DNA from: a virus
Lineage: Duplodnaviria > Heunggongvirae > Uroviricota > Caudoviricetes
Strand: one strand, 5' to 3'
Length of the DNA stretch: 4,788 nt
IMG/VR virus record: IMGVR_UViG_2537561727_000003
Location: 1-4,788 of that record
Position 1 is the stretch's first letter. The number at the start of each line of letters is the position of its first letter. A program made the position numbers and the translations under genes. Below the pieces are notes generated by a model. It saw only the letters and a program-made list of their open reading frames with translations, was not told where the DNA came from and ran no database searches. This document shows positions 1 through 4,788 of the stretch, in pieces.

Positions 1-25
1 GCATCCCCCTGAATAAAAACCGGAG

Positions 26-439
26 ATGATGCCAGTTGCCCGTTATCTCTGCATTTTCATAAACGTTGGTTTGGGAGAAGCGGCAAAACGGGATGTGGGG
101 ACAGGGGAAAATCAGATACCGGACATGGCCTCTTTTGCCAGTGGTGATGGATGGATGAAATTACCCAACGGGAAAATCCTGCAATATGGTCGTGGTGCGG
201 TTACGCCGACATTATCGACGCAAACAATGAGAATTACATTCAGCATCCCTTTTCCTAAAAAAGTGGACTGCGCCATGCTTACTCATTCTGGTGATGGTGG
301 TGCGCCTTTAGGTGCTGGGCGAGGGTTCATGATGACTGCAGAAGGCCCAACATTAACCGGTTTTAATTCCGCTTACAGAACTGCATCAACCAGTTCCACA
401 GTATCGATGAATTACAGTTGGTGGGCTGTTGGTGAGTAA
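26..439 (+). CDS. Silent alternative tail-fibre C-terminal cassette (variable receptor-binding domain), expressed only after inversion
   Basis: Open frame from the ORF track (137 aa). The crossover site at 54-79 lies inside its 5' end, and codons 71-79 (GGA GAA = GE, preceded by GLG) are identical in frame to the GLGE codons of the minus-strand tail-fibre gene at the other site. Only 68-439 (about 119 aa, AAKRDVGTGENQ...WWAVGE) would be joined to the constant N-terminus after inversion. The ATG at 26 has a GGAG only 1 nt upstream (poor spacing), so independent expression is doubtful. A cognate chaperone gene follows 20 nt downstream. Confidence 0.65.
   Translation: MMPVARYLCIFINVGLGEAAKRDVGTGENQIPDMASFASGDGWMKLPNGKILQYGRGAVTPTLSTQTMRITFSIPFPKKVDCAMLTHSGDGGAPLGAGRGFMMTAEGPTLTGFNSAYRTASTSSTVSMNYSWWAVGE
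54..79. repeat. Left crossover site for a Hin/Gin/Cin/Pin-family serine invertase (26 bp, imperfect dyad)
   Basis: TTTTCATAAACG TT GGTTTGGGAGAA. The inner half (68-79) is the exact reverse complement of the inner half of the right site (1960-1971), and the 15-bp core 66-80 is a perfect reverse complement of 1959-1973. The central TT is compatible with the AA of the right site in inverted orientation. Confidence 0.8.
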
Positions 440-459
440 TTTTATTCAGGGTGATTTAT

Positions 460-903
460 ATGAACGAATATGTTTATAGCGCAAGGCATAATGCTTTTTT
501 CCCTGTGGATATGATTGATAAATATAAATCAGAGGGATGGGATTTATCAGATGCAAAGGAGGTGAATCAAAATATTATCAGTGAGTTTATGGCTGAACCG
601 CCACAAGGAAAAATCAGTATTGCCGGAGATGATGGGATGCCTGCGTGGGCAGATATTCCTCCACCCACGCATGAAGAGCTTATTGAAATTACTGAATCAG
701 AAAGACAGCTACTAATTAACCAGGCCAACGAATACATGAACAGTAAGCAATGGCCCGGTAAAGCCGCTATTGGTCGTCTGAAAGATGACGAACTGGCGCA
801 ATATAATTTGTGGCTGGATTATCTGGACGCACTGGTGCTGGTCGATACTTCCGGTGCGCCAGATATTGAATGGCCTACGCCTCCGGCAGTTCAGGCCAGA
901 TGA
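460..903 (+). CDS. Tail-fibre assembly chaperone (Tfa family), partner of the silent cassette
   Basis: C-terminus ...LWLDYLDALVLVDTSGAPDIEWPTPPAVQAR is the conserved Tfa C-terminal signature seen in lambda/Mu/P2-type tail-fibre assembly proteins. ATG at 460 is preceded by AGGGTGA (446-452); the ORF track starts at GTG 451, which has a weaker RBS context. It sits directly downstream of the tail-fibre cassette, as for Mu U' / P2 G. Confidence 0.85.
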   Translation: MNEYVYSARHNAFFPVDMIDKYKSEGWDLSDAKEVNQNIISEFMAEPPQGKISIAGDDGMPAWADIPPPTHEELIEITESERQLLINQANEYMNSKQWPGKAAIGRLKDDELAQYNLWLDYLDALVLVDTSGAPDIEWPTPPAVQAR

Positions 904-1480
904 CATCCGGCGCGGTGCTGGTATCTGTTGCCGTCACCGCGTCAATGTAATCCAGCACAGCGTTAAGTCTGGTTGTTTCTGCCTGCGTCAACTTCCGTCC
1001 GGCCTGTAATTTCAGCTGAATCAGACTAATGGAAGCCATTGCTGCATCAATCAGTGACTGGCGCTGTGCTTCTGCCGCGTCTACTGCGGCACTATGCTGT
1101 GCCTCAGTATCCGTCACCCATTTCTCACCATCCCATTTATCATATGGCGTTAACGGGGCGATAGTGGTTGTATTTTCAGGGTAATCACCCGGAGCTGTGA
1201 TTTCTTTCGATTCTCCTGTTTCGGTGCTATAGATGATTTCACCGCGATGGTCTGGCACATATTCCCATGAGTTAAAATCTGCAGAACGGCAGATTGCATA
1301 ACCAGCTTTATGTGTAACTGGTGCATCTAAACAAGAACATGCCGGGATACCGACGCCGACAGCGAGATATTCAGTTGATGTAGAAATATATTCACGCGTT
1401 TCACCATCATAATTATAAATGATAATGTCTCCCGCTTTTATGGCAATGAGTTCACTATTTAATACAGCTTTATTCATCAT
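875..1480 (-). CDS. Tail-fibre assembly chaperone (Tfa family), partner of the currently expressed tail-fibre variant
   Basis: 201 aa. C-terminus ...LNAVLDYIDAVTATDTSTAPDVIWPELPEA matches the Tfa C-terminal signature and the plus-strand Tfa. Its start ATG (1480-1478) overlaps the TGA stop (1479-1477) of the upstream tail-fibre gene (ATGA coupling). The AT-rich 5' half and GC-richer 3' half suggest a mosaic gene. Confidence 0.9.
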   Translation of the reverse strand: MMNKAVLNSELIAIKAGDIIIYNYDGETREYISTSTEYLAVGVGIPACSCLDAPVTHKAGYAICRSADFNSWEYVPDHRGEIIYSTETGESKEITAPGDYPENTTTIAPLTPYDKWDGEKWVTDTEAQHSAAVDAAEAQRQSLIDAAMASISLIQLKLQAGRKLTQAETTRLNAVLDYIDAVTATDTSTAPDVIWPELPEA

Positions 1481-2799
1481 GCAGCCCTCACAATATAATT
1501 AAAGGCGATGTTACGTGGACGATTTTCATTTGCTGTTGGAACAACATTTGCCGCCGAGAAGTGAACATCTTGTCGGATTTTTCGGTCATTAGCGTATGTC
1601 ATAGACACATTGATGTTATTCCGGACTGAGGTACCTCCGTAAAAAGCCCCACTCACACTTTGAACATCGACAATTGCATTAATTTCGCTGTTTACGCGCA
1701 ACTGACCAAAACCGCCAGTAATGTTTCGAATAGCATCTCCTTGCGATGAAAGCAGAGTTCGCCCACTATCCACACCACGTTCATCATCCCAGCCACGAAT
1801 AAACTCACCACGTAAATCAGGCAATTTATTGGTCGGGTAAGCCTTTGCCAGTTCCGGGTATTCTTCAGCAGAAAAAGCCGCACCATTGCATTTCAGCCAG
1901 CCTGTTGGCGGAGTGGCTGAAGGCCACGGAACAGGCACACCAACCGGTAATGCAGAGCCTTCTCCCAAACCAAGGTATGCGAGAAGACCAGCTACATCCT
2001 TTCCACTCAAATGAGTCAGCGTCTCATCCAGTGGCTGCTTACCTGACAGCGCATTGTTAATGGTGGTGCTGAATTTCGGGTCATTGTTAATGGCTGCGGC
2101 AATTTCTTTCAGTGTGTCCAGCGTGGCTGGCGCACCGTTAATCAGAGCGGTAATAGCGGCCTGAACAAACGCAGTGGTCGCAATCCGCGTGGTGTTATTT
2201 CCTGCGGCAGGCGTCGGCGCTTTTGGTTCTCCGGTAAATGTCGGATTATGTTTCTGCGCATACTGTGTATGAGGATCCTGTGCGGCAATGTGGTTTCTCA
2301 TCTGGTCATCCACATACAGCCTTAATTCCAGGACTTCATCATCCACGTATTTACGGGTCGCCAGTACCACCGACGGGTCGATTTTCAGCGTGATAGCTTC
2401 GGTATTCGTGACAACCAGAATCATGCGGATAGTCTGGGTACGACCACTGCCTTCCTGCAACTGCGGTTTGTACGTTTCCGGGCAGTTCGCCACCGCAATG
2501 AGTACGCCTTCATCATCATAAAGCCCAATCTCACGGATCCAGAATCCGCCCTCGTTCTCAGGGATGATTTGCTCCGCAATAATCTGGCTCTGGTTGTTCG
2601 GGTCAACACTCAGAAGATTCAGCGGCGCGATGCGTTTCTGGTTAATCAGTTTTGTCTGTGCCGGGTCTGGTGTCGGCAAGACACCATTCGCATCACCAAC
2701 GGCCATTTGCGTCAGATTCAGCTTACTGCCGAGCATCGTCGCGTTAGCCAGCCGTGCTGCGCCCTGATTAGTCAGAATGGCGTAGTATTTCACTGTCAT
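1477..2799 (-). CDS. Tail-fibre protein (P2 gpH / Mu S-like constant N-terminus fused to a variable C-terminal domain)
   Basis: 440 aa. N-terminus MTVKYYAILTNQGAARLANA...MAVGDANG resembles the N-terminus of P2 gpH-type tail fibres (from memory). The C-terminal part contains a tail-collar-like stretch (PVGVPVPWP...GWLKCNGAAFSAEEYPELAKAY). Start ATG 2799-2797 overlaps the stop of the upstream gpI-like gene. The crossover site at 1960-1985 lies in codons 273-281 (LLAYLGLGE), separating constant residues 1-280 from variable residues 281-440. Confidence 0.9.
   Translation of the reverse strand: MTVKYYAILTNQGAARLANATMLGSKLNLTQMAVGDANGVLPTPDPAQTKLINQKRIAPLNLLSVDPNNQSQIIAEQIIPENEGGFWIREIGLYDDEGVLIAVANCPETYKPQLQEGSGRTQTIRMILVVTNTEAITLKIDPSVVLATRKYVDDEVLELRLYVDDQMRNHIAAQDPHTQYAQKHNPTFTGEPKAPTPAAGNNTTRIATTAFVQAAITALINGAPATLDTLKEIAAAINNDPKFSTTINNALSGKQPLDETLTHLSGKDVAGLLAYLGLGEGSALPVGVPVPWPSATPPTGWLKCNGAAFSAEEYPELAKAYPTNKLPDLRGEFIRGWDDERGVDSGRTLLSSQGDAIRNITGGFGQLRVNSEINAIVDVQSVSGAFYGGTSVRNNINVSMTYANDRKIRQDVHFSAANVVPTANENRPRNIAFNYIVRAA
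1960..1985. repeat. Right crossover site for a Hin/Gin/Cin/Pin-family serine invertase (26 bp, imperfect dyad)
   Basis: TTCTCCCAAACC AA GGTATGCGAGAA. The half-sites are TTCTCCCAAACC and, in reverse complement, TTCTCGCATACC. This closely resembles the hixL sequence as I recall it (TTCTTGAAAACC AA GGTTTTTGATAA), about 20 of 26 positions. It lies inside the tail-fibre gene at the constant/variable boundary. Confidence 0.8.
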
Positions 2800-3407
2800 G
2801 CGTTTACTCTCAGGTTATCAATTAAATGAATGGCCGAGGCCGGGAAATAATCCCCTCCGACAATAATGGCCTCCGGGGTGTAGGGATAAACCGTCAGGGC
2901 GTCGCCGTGATAGCATCCCGCAACGGCAAAAATGTTGCCGGTTGTACTTAAACTGATAGCCAGTCCCGTCAGATGGCGGCTTGCCGGTTTTGCATCAGCA
3001 ACGAGGCGCTCCAGCTCCTGATACATTTCCTCGGTAATACCCTGCTCAAGCACGCCAACAACGATACGGAACGTCCCCGGCTCCTCGTTGAGTTGCCACC
3101 ACTCCCTCACCTCAATCAGATAGCCGAGCGGCTCCACCACACGGCGAATCGCACCAATAGTGCCCTTATGGCAGTGAATGAAATACGCATCGCGGATAAC
3201 AGCGCGTTTGGTCGCTTCCGGCCATTTATCATCCCACCTGTCGACCGAAAATGACCACGCCAGCCACGGCAGCAGATTTGCCGGACAGGTATCCGGGTTC
3301 CACAGCTCACGAATACTGACCGGCGTTTTTTCAATTTCCGCACAGGCTTTTGCGGCGGCGACTTCAAGCGGTGATGAGCCGGTCGGCAGCAGTCGCGAAT
3401 CACTCAT
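2796..3407 (-). CDS. Phage tail/baseplate protein, P2 gpI-like
   Basis: 203-aa ORF immediately upstream of the tail-fibre gene and downstream of the J-like gene, matching the P2 order J-I-H-G. A strong SD (GGAGG, reverse complement of about 3412-3416) precedes the ATG at 3407. The family assignment rests on position and recollection, not on a search. Confidence 0.8.
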   Translation of the reverse strand: MSDSRLLPTGSSPLEVAAAKACAEIEKTPVSIRELWNPDTCPANLLPWLAWSFSVDRWDDKWPEATKRAVIRDAYFIHCHKGTIGAIRRVVEPLGYLIEVREWWQLNEEPGTFRIVVGVLEQGITEEMYQELERLVADAKPASRHLTGLAISLSTTGNIFAVAGCYHGDALTVYPYTPEAIIVGGDYFPASAIHLIDNLRVNA

Positions 3408-4233
3408 CCGAGCCTCCGGTCACGACGCGGTATTCAGTACAGAAAGACGCCTGCGTATTGTTGAGCACGATGTCAGCCAGAGGTGCAGTCAGTTCGACAC
3501 GCTGCACGCCTTCCACATGCAAAGCGGCATAAATGGCAGACAGACGGATGTCGCGCCCCAGCCGGTGCTGTGCCGTGATATACGCTTCCAGTTTTTTCAC
3601 GGCGGCAGCGCGAATGGGTTCGCTTTCAGGACCAGGGTAAAGGTAAAGCGTGGCGTTTATCTGGTATTCAACGATGGCAGCAGACTGCACGGTCACACGA
3701 TCGGCCACCGGTCTGACGTCCTCGCCATTAAGGGCGTTACGCACCACGGCCAGCAGGTCTTCGGATGCGACACCGTTATTTTCACGTGACAGCACAGAGA
3801 TGGTGACGCAGGCCGGAGACGGACTGGTGACAGAGATATCCGCGACACGCCCGTCGGCACTGCGACCATGATACTGATAGGCTCCCACCGACCCGGCGAC
3901 GCTTAAGCCCTCAAACGCCTGCTGAATACGCAGACGATAATCGGTGTCAGACTCCATCACTGCCGGTGTCGGCGGGATAGTCGAATCATCTGCCGGGGTG
4001 ATAATCAGGCGCGTGGTGTTGTAATTGGCACCAATCACATCAAGGTCATTACCGGCGGCACAGGCCAGCATTACCGCCCGTGCGGCCTCATTCACACGCT
4101 GACGCCAGATAAGCTCACGATAAGCATTTTCCTCCAGCAGTTTGACGAGAGGCTCGGATTCCAGCGTCAGGGTACGGGCAACCGCCTCCTGCTGGTCTTC
4201 CGGGTATCCGCCGTGGCTGTCTGGAATATGACG
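3400..4233 (-). pseudogene. Baseplate assembly protein J-like, 5'-truncated (no start codon at the upstream end of the open frame)
   Basis: The minus-strand frame is open from a stop at 4236-4234 down to the TGA at 3402-3400 (277 codons). I translated 4233 to 4096 by hand and found no ATG, GTG or TTG; the first possible start is GTG at 4095, which is where the ORF track begins (231 aa). Baseplate J proteins of P2-like phages are about 300 aa, so the N-terminus appears to be lost at a deletion junction. A protein starting at GTG 4095 cannot be excluded. Confidence 0.6.
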
Positions 4234-4262
4234 TCAGCGCCACCGACATCACCAGCTCGTTT

Positions 4263-4439
4263 ATGGCTATCCGCAAGACCATGACCAGCAGCGGACGCAG
4301 CGCCACCTATGAGGCCAGCCGCAGCGAGGAAGCCAGCCACGCAGACCTCGCCTGGGCGACCATGCACGCCCTGTTAAATGAGCCACTCACCGCCGGTATC
4401 AGCACCCCGCTGACATCCACCATTCTGGAGTTTTACTGA
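4263..4439 (+). CDS. Short ORF or 3' remnant of an upstream packaging gene (by P2 synteny possibly the terminase large-subunit C-terminus), stop/start-overlapped with portal
   Basis: The plus frame is open from 4146 to the TGA at 4437-4439. The first ATG is at 4263 (MAIRKTMTSSGRSATYEASRSEEASHADLAWATMHALLNEPLTAGISTPLTSTILEFY, 58 aa), below the ORF track's apparent length cut-off. Its TGA shares the A at 4439 with the portal ATG (TGATG). There is no usable start at the 5' end of the open frame, so it may be a truncated remnant. Confidence 0.35.
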   Translation: MAIRKTMTSSGRSATYEASRSEEASHADLAWATMHALLNEPLTAGISTPLTSTILEFY

Positions 4440-4788
4440 TGAGCAAGAAAAAAGGGAAAACACCGCAACCTGCGGCAAAAAAAATGACTGCCAGCGCCCC
4501 GAAAATGGAGGCATTCACCTTTGGCGAGCCGGTGCCGGTACTCGACCGCCGTGACATTCTGGATTACGTCGAGTGCATCAGTAACGGCAGATGGTATGAG
4601 CCACCGGTCAGCTTTACCGGCCTGGCAAAAAGTCTGCGTGCTGCCGTGCATCACAGCTCGCCGATTTACGTCAAACGCAATATTCTGGCCTCGACATTTA
4701 TCCCGCATCCGTGGCTTTCCCAGCAGGATTTCAGCCGCTTTGTGCTGGATTTTCTGGTGTTCGGTAATGCGTTTCTGGAAAAGCGTTA
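4439..4788 (+). CDS. Phage portal protein (P2 gpQ-like), 5' part; continues beyond the window
   Basis: ATG at 4439 with GGAG about 10 nt upstream. Translation MSKKKGKTPQPAAKKMTASAPKMEAFTFGEPVPVLDRRDILDYVECISNGRWYEPPVSFTGLAKSLRAAVHHSSPIYVKRNILASTFIPHPWLSQQDFSRFVLDFLVFGNAFLEKR stays open to the window end and matches my recollection of P2-family portal N-termini. The ORF track does not list it because it has no stop inside the window. Confidence 0.8.
   Translation, partial: MSKKKGKTPQPAAKKMTASAPKMEAFTFGEPVPVLDRRDILDYVECISNGRWYEPPVSFTGLAKSLRAAVHHSSPIYVKRNILASTFIPHPWLSQQDFSRFVLDFLVFGNAFLEKR

Follow-up and report, generated by a model that had tools for sequence, protein, structure and literature searches.

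Invertible tail-fibre segments of the Gin/Cin/Pin type have been textbook material since the 1980s. In the Mu G segment, inverted by Gin, and the P1 C segment, inverted by Cin (S/U versus S'/U'), a serine invertase gene adjoins the segment, the crossover sites are 26 bp long with a 2-bp core, and the segment, which leaves the constant 5' part of the fibre gene outside, provides two opposed alternative 3' ends, each with its own assembly or chaperone gene; the C-termini of the Tfa proteins are conserved between the two chaperones. In Escherichia coli K-12, the P segment (stfP/tfaP/tfaE/stfE/pinE) belongs to e14, a defective prophage described as lambdoid in the title of Mehta et al. (2004), as cited in PMC4272514. 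In a P2-like prophage of EPEC E2348/69, an inversion whose orientations coexist in clonal culture has been attributed to tail-fibre switching (Goldberg et al., 2014, PMC4272514), and tail-fibre inversions of both e14 and P2-like prophages have been found with their orientations coexisting in single cultures (PMC4272514).

The DNA analysed here, which we call the window, is a stretch of 4,788 nt, and we conclude with high confidence that its positions 54-1985 form an invertible tail-fibre segment of the Gin/Cin/Pin/Hin family in a P2-like (Peduoviridae) E. coli prophage. The phage backbone and the fibre sequences are unlike those of Mu and P1, and whereas in those phages a change of host range has been demonstrated experimentally, for the window it is a prediction. 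The P2-like module order J, I, H, G is present on the minus strand as Baseplate_J, Tail_P2_I, Phage_tail_fib and Caudo_TAP, and the arrangement is collinear with that of intact P2-like prophages. The H gene carries the N-terminal Phage_tail_fib domain (PF12571, E=2.6e-62 over residues 1-150) in its P2 gpH-like constant part, residues 1-276 (1972-2799, minus strand), and is accompanied by a context gene for a P2 gpI-like baseplate/tail protein of 203 aa (2796-3407, minus strand; Tail_P2_I, E=2.9e-56).

The arms at 54-80 and 1959-1985 (27 nt, 81% complementary) form the longest inverted repeat in positions 1-2900. Two 26-bp sites, inverted relative to each other, make up this repeat and bound a segment of 1.9 kb. 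The proximal site, on the invertase side (54-79, unstranded; inverted repeat I1), reads TTTTCATAAACG-TT-GGTTTGGGAGAA, with its TT core at 66-67; the distal site, within the fibre gene (1960-1985, unstranded), reads TTCTCCCAAACC-AA-GGTATGCGAGAA, with its AA core at 1972-1973, inside codon 276. TT and AA are the same core in inverted orientation, and a search of the whole window for a half-site plus core, allowing up to four mismatches, returned two sites only. Two inverted 26-bp sites with imperfect 12-bp half-sites around a common 2-bp core are what defines the sites of Gin/Cin/Pin/Hin systems. The reverse complement of the proximal site, TTCTCCCAAACCAACGTTTATGAAAA, matches exactly the pinE-proximal site of K-12 e14 (L002 9606-9631), and the distal site of e14, TTCTCCCAAACCAAGGTTTTCGAGAG, has its inner half-site and core in common with that of the window.

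The gene for the recombinase lies just outside the window. The flank that separates that gene from the proximal site, positions 1-53 (minus strand), is the upstream region of the invertase gene: both in the source scaffold and in relatives, the gene has its start codon 3 nt to the left of position 1, in L001 a recombinase CDS occupies 5405-5998 on the minus strand with window position 1 at locus position 6001, and window 3-80 is 87% identical to e14 9605-9680, which adjoins pinE. The window, which equals L011 6620-11407 in reverse complement, is one contig of a draft scaffold. The contig next to it has a copy of window 1-65 at its end, L011 6540-6609 consisting of the start of pin and then that copy. 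This adjoining contig encodes a 197-aa protein (MLIGYVRVSTNDQ...) with Pfam domains Resolvase and HTH_7, which is 87% identical to e14 PinE, matches PHROG 125 (DNA invertase) at 6e-100, and is full length and 99.5% identical to the invertase of L004. A small recombinase of the serine invertase subfamily is thus found next to the segment, on a contig that overlaps window 1-65, and the same position is occupied in L001, L004, L005 and L014. In the family, the 5' portion of the invertase gene holds a recombinational enhancer made of two Fis sites spaced by 48 bp, and by analogy the reaction here would probably depend on Fis and an enhancer; degenerate matches to the Fis consensus KNNYRNNWNNYRNNM occur 48 bp apart at invertase nt 23 and 71, and are conserved in e14 pinE, the pattern being one that is frequent by chance (10 matches in 594 nt).

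As drawn, the fibre gene (1477-2799, minus strand) encodes 440 aa, with codons 273-280 reading LAYLGLGE and residues 281-440 adding 160 aa. Its expressed 3' cassette (1477-1971, minus strand; residues 277-440) consists of GLGE and these 160 aa (GSALPVGV...IVRAA) and forms a Collar-type tip (PF07484, E=3e-15), with PDB sequence matches to the T4 gp37 tip (2xgf, 1.9e-15) and a short tail fibre (9cuy, 3.8e-26). The Collar family is T4 gp37/gp12-like. On the opposite strand, the silent cassette (68-439) comprises GLGE, encoded by 68-79 (GGTTTGGGAGAA) in the frame of the 26-439 ORF, then 119 aa (AAKRDV...WWAVGE) and a stop codon; it carries Gp53-like_C (PF21882, E=2e-13) and matches PHROG 1396, a tail fibre protein (E=3e-39). 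The placement of this domain is that of Pfam; a single-sequence AlphaFold2 model (pLDDT 47) was too poor for a fold search.

The preliminary description of this DNA had predicted that inversion would replace the 440-aa fibre by one of about 399 aa, and inverting 67-1972 in silico does produce a 399-aa ORF (...LAYLGLGEAAKRDVGTGENQ...WWAVGE) with neither stop nor frameshift. Inversion of 66-1973 or 68-1971 has the same outcome, and, as expected, the frame is lost in the asymmetric inversions 67-1973 and 66-1972. Strands are exchanged at the central TT/AA dinucleotide (66-67/1972-1973), within codon 276. Residues 1-280 had been taken as constant; the fusion in frame stands, but the strictly constant part is residues 1-276, and GLGE (277-280) is encoded by both cassettes, inside the invertible segment. 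The term "exon swap" used at that stage is wrong, the process being site-specific DNA inversion by a serine invertase. The 399-aa protein exists as a contiguous ORF in the natural genomes L004, L005 and L007, where the counterpart of the silent cassette is its C-terminus. Nor is the silent frame degenerate: relative to the intact prophage of E. coli 65COLEC, there are 2 aa differences in the silent cassette and none in the H protein, and the copy expressed in L007 matches the cassette at 100% identity.

Downstream of each cassette lies a Caudo_TAP gene of its own, in keeping with the earlier proposal that each variable domain directly precedes a different Tfa. The TfaP-like gene paired with the silent cassette (460-903, plus strand; 147 aa, Caudo_TAP E=4e-30) starts 21 nt after it and follows the 399-aa gene in flipped genomes; the TfaE-like gene paired with the expressed cassette (875-1480, minus strand; 200/201 aa, E=1.8e-32) has a start codon that overlaps the fibre stop (ATGA, 1477-1480), and converges on the other chaperone gene with an overlap of 29 nt. 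The C-termini of the two chaperones are alike (36% over 72 aa), and the 201-aa chaperone has no match in a sequence search of the PDB. A 3' end exchanged in frame, with a downstream assembly gene, is the arrangement of tail-fibre switching of the Mu S/U-S'/U' type. The two variable ends had been said to show no obvious similarity; BLASTP between them finds none even at E≤10, and they belong to separate Pfam families (Collar and Gp53-like_C). From these different domain families we infer that the two tips may differ in receptor specificity.

We propose that the serine invertase, whose gene lies immediately to the left of the window and points away from it, would bring the two 26-bp sites together and cut the central AA/TT dinucleotides at 66-67 and 1972-1973, after which the strands would be rotated and rejoined and the 1.9-kb segment flipped. 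The constant residues 1-276 would provide baseplate attachment and shaft, and because the distal site lies within fibre codons 272-280 and both inner half-sites encode GLGE in frame, this constant part could be joined to either tip. In the orientation drawn, the product would be the 440-aa fibre with a Collar-type tip and the TfaE-like chaperone gene downstream; after inversion, it would be the 399-aa fibre with a Gp53-like tip and the TfaP-like chaperone gene downstream.

The e14 P segment is built in the same way, from a constant fibre part, a cassette with its tfa gene, an inverted tfa gene with its cassette, and an invertase gene; in both loci the crossover falls within LGLGE, and e14 is likewise a defective prophage in which gpI/J-like genes and portal and terminase fragments adjoin the switch. 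Its TfaE is 93% identical to the counterpart in the window, StfE 59%, TfaP 53% and the invertase 87%. The crossover sites and one chaperone gene are common to the two loci. In contrast, the constant part of e14 is short, the whole of StfP having 209 aa, and bears no relation to the 276-aa P2 gpH-type N-terminus of the window, its second cassette (GAKLNAATA...) has no significant BLASTP match to the gp53-like cassette, and its backbone is described as lambdoid, that of the window being P2-like. The drawn orientations also differ, since K-12 MG1655 expresses the cassette on the TfaP side and the window that on the TfaE side.

Intact P2-like prophages with the same module occur in E. coli 65COLEC, in O157:H7 EC4115 and in the record "Escherichia phage P2" KC618326 (O157:H43 T22), all with the order invertase, silent cassette, tfa, tfa, H, I, J. 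The Collar cassette alleles of the intact relatives differ from that of the window, at 55-62% identity and with lengths of 144-165 aa. Among complete E. coli genomes in which at least 80% of positions 1-2799 are present, 72 carry the segment as drawn versus 63 that carry the version flipped in silico, and O157:H7 genomes, with matches at about 95% identity, include both states. One metagenome scaffold, L007, has both cassettes at 100% identity to the window in the flipped orientation. The L009 assembly contains both junction alleles; its Ns coincide exactly with the positions that distinguish the two outer half-sites, implying a mixed culture. The two orientations that mark Gin/Cin/Pin/Hin systems are therefore seen across natural genomes, a count that covers strains other than the source strain.

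The prophage itself is defective, a state that the preliminary description overlooked. At 4206|4207, a J gene lacking some 34 N-terminal codons (3400-4206, minus strand; Baseplate_J profile positions 112-254 of 255) is fused to a C-terminal fragment of the terminase large subunit gene P, which runs to 4439 (Terminase_6C) and is followed by the first 116 portal codons (4207-4788, plus strand; 97.8% identical to L003 7330-7913, whose annotation reads terminase and portal). Homology to intact J, and with it the L001 alignment, stops at 4206. Whereas the 65COLEC, EC4115 and KC618326 prophages keep their head, lysis and baseplate genes, this deletion has removed V, W, the N-terminus of J, all head and lysis genes and several baseplate genes. 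The late promoter of the V operon of P2 lies in the V-W region. A search on the minus strand ahead of J', I and H found no sigma-70-like site, and the window contains no Ogr-type motif (TGT-N12-ACA); a promoter scan gave counts at chance level and a terminator scan 13 sites, all weak, versus 4.4 in shuffles, with nothing usable upstream of the fibre operon in either. Expression of either fibre in the source strain is doubtful, because the upstream part of the operon is gone and no promoter-like site was found. The reading frames are intact, but this prophage copy cannot make phage on its own, and with the head, lysis and several baseplate genes lost, neither fibre would be displayed on a phage without help.

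It could be argued from this deletion, and from the lack of a promoter-like site upstream of J', I and H or of an Ogr-type motif, that the locus is an inert relic, with the architecture of a Pin switch but without meaningful flipping or protein, frozen as drawn in a decaying prophage. We regard this as unlikely: the five ORFs of the switch are all intact and nearly identical to those of the intact prophage, the adjoining contig encodes a full-length invertase, and e14, which is equally defective, flips in K-12 cultures (PMC4272514). By analogy with e14, the switch in the window may still flip. The intactness of both cassettes, both chaperone genes and the neighbouring invertase despite the deletion is also the premise of a more speculative idea, to which we give little credence, that the remnant module is kept as a reservoir of switchable tips that co-resident or superinfecting P2-like phages could pick up by recombination. 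Among relatives, the Collar cassette alleles are 55-62% identical (144-165 aa) and the gp53-like cassette is mostly conserved (87-100%), and the reservoir idea would have the Collar cassette diversifying fast and the gp53-like cassette remaining mostly stable.

The 26-439 ORF might also be taken for a free-standing gene of 136 aa (RefSeq "gp53-like domain-containing protein"), given its ATG at 26/29 preceded by GGAG at 22-25, and PGAP does call such a CDS in L001, which is oriented as drawn, and in the flipped L004 and L005. However, the cassette does not include the ATG at 26 or the first 14 codons, which belong to the flank on the invertase side and are acquired by whichever cassette is there: the flank reads MMPVARYLCIFINV joined to the gp53-like cassette in the window, MMPLARYLCIFINV joined to Collar in L004, and MPFACYFFIFINV joined to Collar in the "StfE" of e14. 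This ORF is without the N-terminal Phage_tail_fib domain of the constant part of the full-length fibre, and where the genome is flipped it forms the 3' end of one continuous 399-aa ORF, wrongly split by PGAP; we consider an independent gene very improbable.

Less probable still is an assembly artefact, in which the presence of several similar P2-like prophages in a draft genome, a known source of confusion in assembly (PMC3032704), would have yielded a chimeric contig whose proteins are not encoded as drawn. The window is a 4.8-kb contig between a scaffold end and a gap of 10 Ns, and the deposited scaffold orients it opposite to the orientation implied by the 65-nt overlap; yet window 1-4206 is gap-free, collinear and 99.4% identical to the finished genome of 65COLEC, with the same layout from invertase to gpI, and 72 complete genomes share that layout. 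The J'/'P junction is the sole feature unique to this contig, and it leaves the switch untouched; an exact 50-mer across 4206 has zero matches in GTDB representative genomes. A multi-site shufflon or Min-type system with more than two fibre variants, for which the four-variant, shufflon-like locus of EPEC E2348/69 (PMC4272514; likened to the window by its published description) and the other cassette alleles in relatives could be cited, is scarcely credible in a locus with two sites, two cassette/chaperone pairs and a serine invertase instead of an Rci-type tyrosine recombinase acting on multiple sfx sites. A diversity-generating retroelement, which would have a template/variable repeat pair and a reverse transcriptase, is rejected as well: positions 1-2900 contain no direct repeat longer than 31 nt and the scanned window ORFs no RT domain.

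The locus is thus best read as an invertible tail-fibre switch of the Pin type, a mechanism that is already known, and its value as a discovery is small; its use is practical and lies in annotation. Draft assemblies break or turn ambiguous at the crossover sites. The NCBI pipeline annotates the flipped 399-aa gene as two pieces, a small "gp53-like" CDS and a pseudogene, and assigns a spurious N-terminus to the silent cassette. Recognising the switch avoids false calls of pseudogenes and structural variants in E. coli, O157:H7 included.

Within window 1-2900 the longest inverted repeat, with 27-nt arms (54-80 and 1959-1985) that are 81% complementary, resolves into the two crossover sites: a proximal 26-bp site at 54-79 (TTTTCATAAACG-TT-GGTTTGGGAGAA) and a distal 26-bp site at 1960-1985 (TTCTCCCAAACC-AA-GGTATGCGAGAA). 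The tail-fibre gene H, an ORF at 1477-2799 on the minus strand, encodes 440 aa, in which codons 273-280 read LAYLGLGE and are followed by 160 residues, and plus-strand positions 68-79 read GLGE in frame with the ORF at 26-439, both as claimed in the preliminary description. Reverse-complementing 67-1972 in silico (or 66-1973, or 68-1971) gave a single unbroken ORF of 399 aa ending ...NYSWWAVGE, so the proposed in-frame swap from 440 to about 399 aa is exact in its numbers; the frame is lost with asymmetric cuts. In the Gin/Cin/Pin/Hin family, strand exchange occurs at the central dinucleotide of the site. By analogy, the exchange point here would be at 66-67 / 1972-1973, within codon 276, so that the strictly constant part would be residues 1-276 and not, as first described, residues 1-280, with GLGE provided by both cassettes. 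We considered the ATG at 26 as a real start and rejected it: the 14 codons ahead of GLGE are invertase-proximal flank, acquired by whichever cassette sits there.

The segment inverts in nature. Counting only complete E. coli genomes in which at least 80% of the 1-2799 query lay in one same-strand place, we found the as-drawn version in 72 and the in-silico flipped version in 63; since the wrong orientation covers at most 68% of the query, these counts are orientation-specific. Genomes of O157:H7, at about 95% identity to the query, hold both states (EC4115 flipped, F7386 as drawn). In three loci with the segment flipped (L004, L005 and L007) the 399-aa ORF runs without a break, with the 147-aa tfa downstream of it, bearing out the suggestion that each variable end precedes its own Tfa and that the two switch together; in L007 both cassettes are 100% identical to those of the window, in flipped orientation. 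In flipped genomes, RefSeq/PGAP splits this contiguous ORF (L004 4040-5239, L005 4097-5296) into a 136-aa "gp53-like domain-containing protein" and a pseudogene, "phage tail protein, missing C-terminus": the switch is systematically mis-annotated.

Both orientations can also be read from a single assembly. That of L009 (GCA_001953095.1, LYNF01000001.1) keeps the two junction alleles in tandem, flanking an N-gap, at 9645-9960 and 11789-11935, and its ambiguous site, TTCTCCCAAACCAANGTNTNNGANAA, has Ns exactly at the positions that differ between the two outer half-sites, which implies that the sequenced culture was mixed, holding both orientations. In e14 and in EPEC prophages of the P2-like type, orientations have been reported to coexist within single cultures (PMC4272514). 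A separate case is L014 (KC618326, deposited as "Escherichia phage P2" from O157:H43 T22), where one outer half-site, TTCTCGCATACC, occurs at both crossover sites (1584 and 3442) and the invertase CDS is only 495 nt long; these two features suggest that the switch was not assembled correctly in the deposited record.

In its source scaffold L011 the window corresponds, base for base, to the reverse complement of 6620-11407, the opening 4788 nt of JH954133.1 (GCA_000304115.2), and its contig is bounded by the scaffold end on one side and a 10-N gap on the other. The contig beyond the gap ends in a second copy of window 1-65 (L011 6543-6609, the copy at the window contig start being 11343-11407), adjoining the point where a 197-aa Resolvase+HTH_7 gene begins; past that gene come the P2 tail genes FI, FII, E, T, U and D. 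PHROGs classes this recombinase as a DNA invertase. The 65-nt contig overlap shows that in the natural arrangement the invertase gene lies directly against window position 1, with leftward transcription. In the deposited scaffold the window contig stands in the orientation opposite to that needed by the overlap, probably a scaffolding error, which mate pairs from a mixed-orientation culture may have caused. The invertase gene holds a pair of degenerate matches to the Fis consensus, 48 bp apart (nt 23 and 71), that is kept in pinE; as evidence for a recombinational enhancer the pair is weak. Window 3-18 and 440-455 form a 16-nt inverted repeat (ATCCCCCTGAATAAAA / TTTTATTCAGGGTGAT) that has a single mismatch, about a 1-in-20 event by chance for the region; TTTTATTCAGGGNGAT is shared between the stretches immediately before the invertase start and the tfa147 start.

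The 160-aa and 119-aa ends show zero similarity by BLASTP even at E<=10, in agreement with the earlier remark that the variable domains lack obvious resemblance. The Collar end (1477-1971, minus strand) matches solved structures in sequence, namely the 9cuy short tail fibre (3.8e-26), the T4 gp37 tip 2xgf (1.9e-15) and T4 gp12. The gp53-like end (68-439, plus strand) matches PHROG tail-fibre families, its sole PDB match being marginal (9zd7, short tail fibre gp92, E=0.0065), and a single-sequence structure model of this cassette (pLDDT 47) gave no usable fold. By the precedent of Mu and P1 within the family, the two tips may reasonably be expected to bind different receptors. Among relatives (L001, L002, L004-L011, L014), the Collar cassette is highly polymorphic, with 55-62% identity and 144-165 aa from GLGE, and has conserved ends (GLGEGSALPVGVPVPWPSATPPTGWLKCNG ... 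RN(I/V)AFNYIVRAA); identity for the gp53-like cassette falls mostly at 87-100%, L006 being the one outlier at 40%. The tfa genes are convergent, their 3' ends overlapping by 29 nt at 875-903, and the C-terminal 72 residues of the two chaperones are 36% identical (DTS.APD..WP..P), a conserved Tfa C-terminal module.

Window 1-4206 aligns gap-free at 99.4% identity with the intact P2-like prophage of E. coli 65COLEC, which runs invertase, silent cassette, tfa, tfa, H, I, J, W, V ... capsid. In Pfam, fibre residues 1-150 match Phage_tail_fib and residues 287-334 match Collar; the silent cassette is Gp53-like_C, both downstream tfa genes are Caudo_TAP, and the I and J genes match Tail_P2_I and Baseplate_J respectively. 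H is without differences from 65COLEC, gpI and each tfa have one apiece, and the silent cassette has only 2 substitutions, so the 68-439 frame, whose degeneracy would have spoken against the swap, is not degenerate. At 4206|4207, J has lost roughly its first 34 codons and is fused, with a 2-nt microhomology (TA), to a C-terminal terminase fragment, followed by the portal gene on the strand opposite to J. Read against the P2 gene order, the junction corresponds to one deletion of roughly 10 kb that starts in P, takes out O, N, M, L, X, the lysis genes, R, S, V and W, and ends in J. A similar but non-identical J'/'P junction, retaining 122 nt more, occurs in E. coli 1218KP (L003), within a remnant that lacks the invertible segment; as the junctions differ, the two deletions are either independent or nested.

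The P2 late promoter for the V-W-J-I-H-G operon lies in the V-W region, which the deletion has removed, and within the window there is neither a promoter-like site upstream of J', I and H on the minus strand nor any occurrence of the TGT-N12-ACA motif; the fibre is thus probably not expressed from this prophage copy. The best terminator-like hairpin in the window, at 4461-4477 on the minus strand (TGCCGCAGGTTGCGGTG followed by a T-run), is antisense within the first portal codons, and this predicted terminator would stop read-through heading towards J'-I-H. The copy cannot make particles. Its DNA, with both reading frames intact, may still flip as e14 does.

Shufflon and diversity-generating (DGR) arrangements were both rejected for the window, where the arrangement is a simple two-site switch, and the locus has those defining features of the Gin/Cin/Pin/Hin family that could be tested. 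The crossover site nearest the invertase has the same sequence in K-12 e14, while the distal sites of the two loci have the inner half-site and core in common; the proteins here are 87% (PinE, the invertase), 93% (TfaE), 59% (StfE) and 53% (TfaP) identical to their e14 counterparts. The system is of an ordinary kind that is already known; among described loci the e14 P segment and the inversion loci of P2-like prophages stand closest to it, and its useful by-products lie in annotation and assembly.
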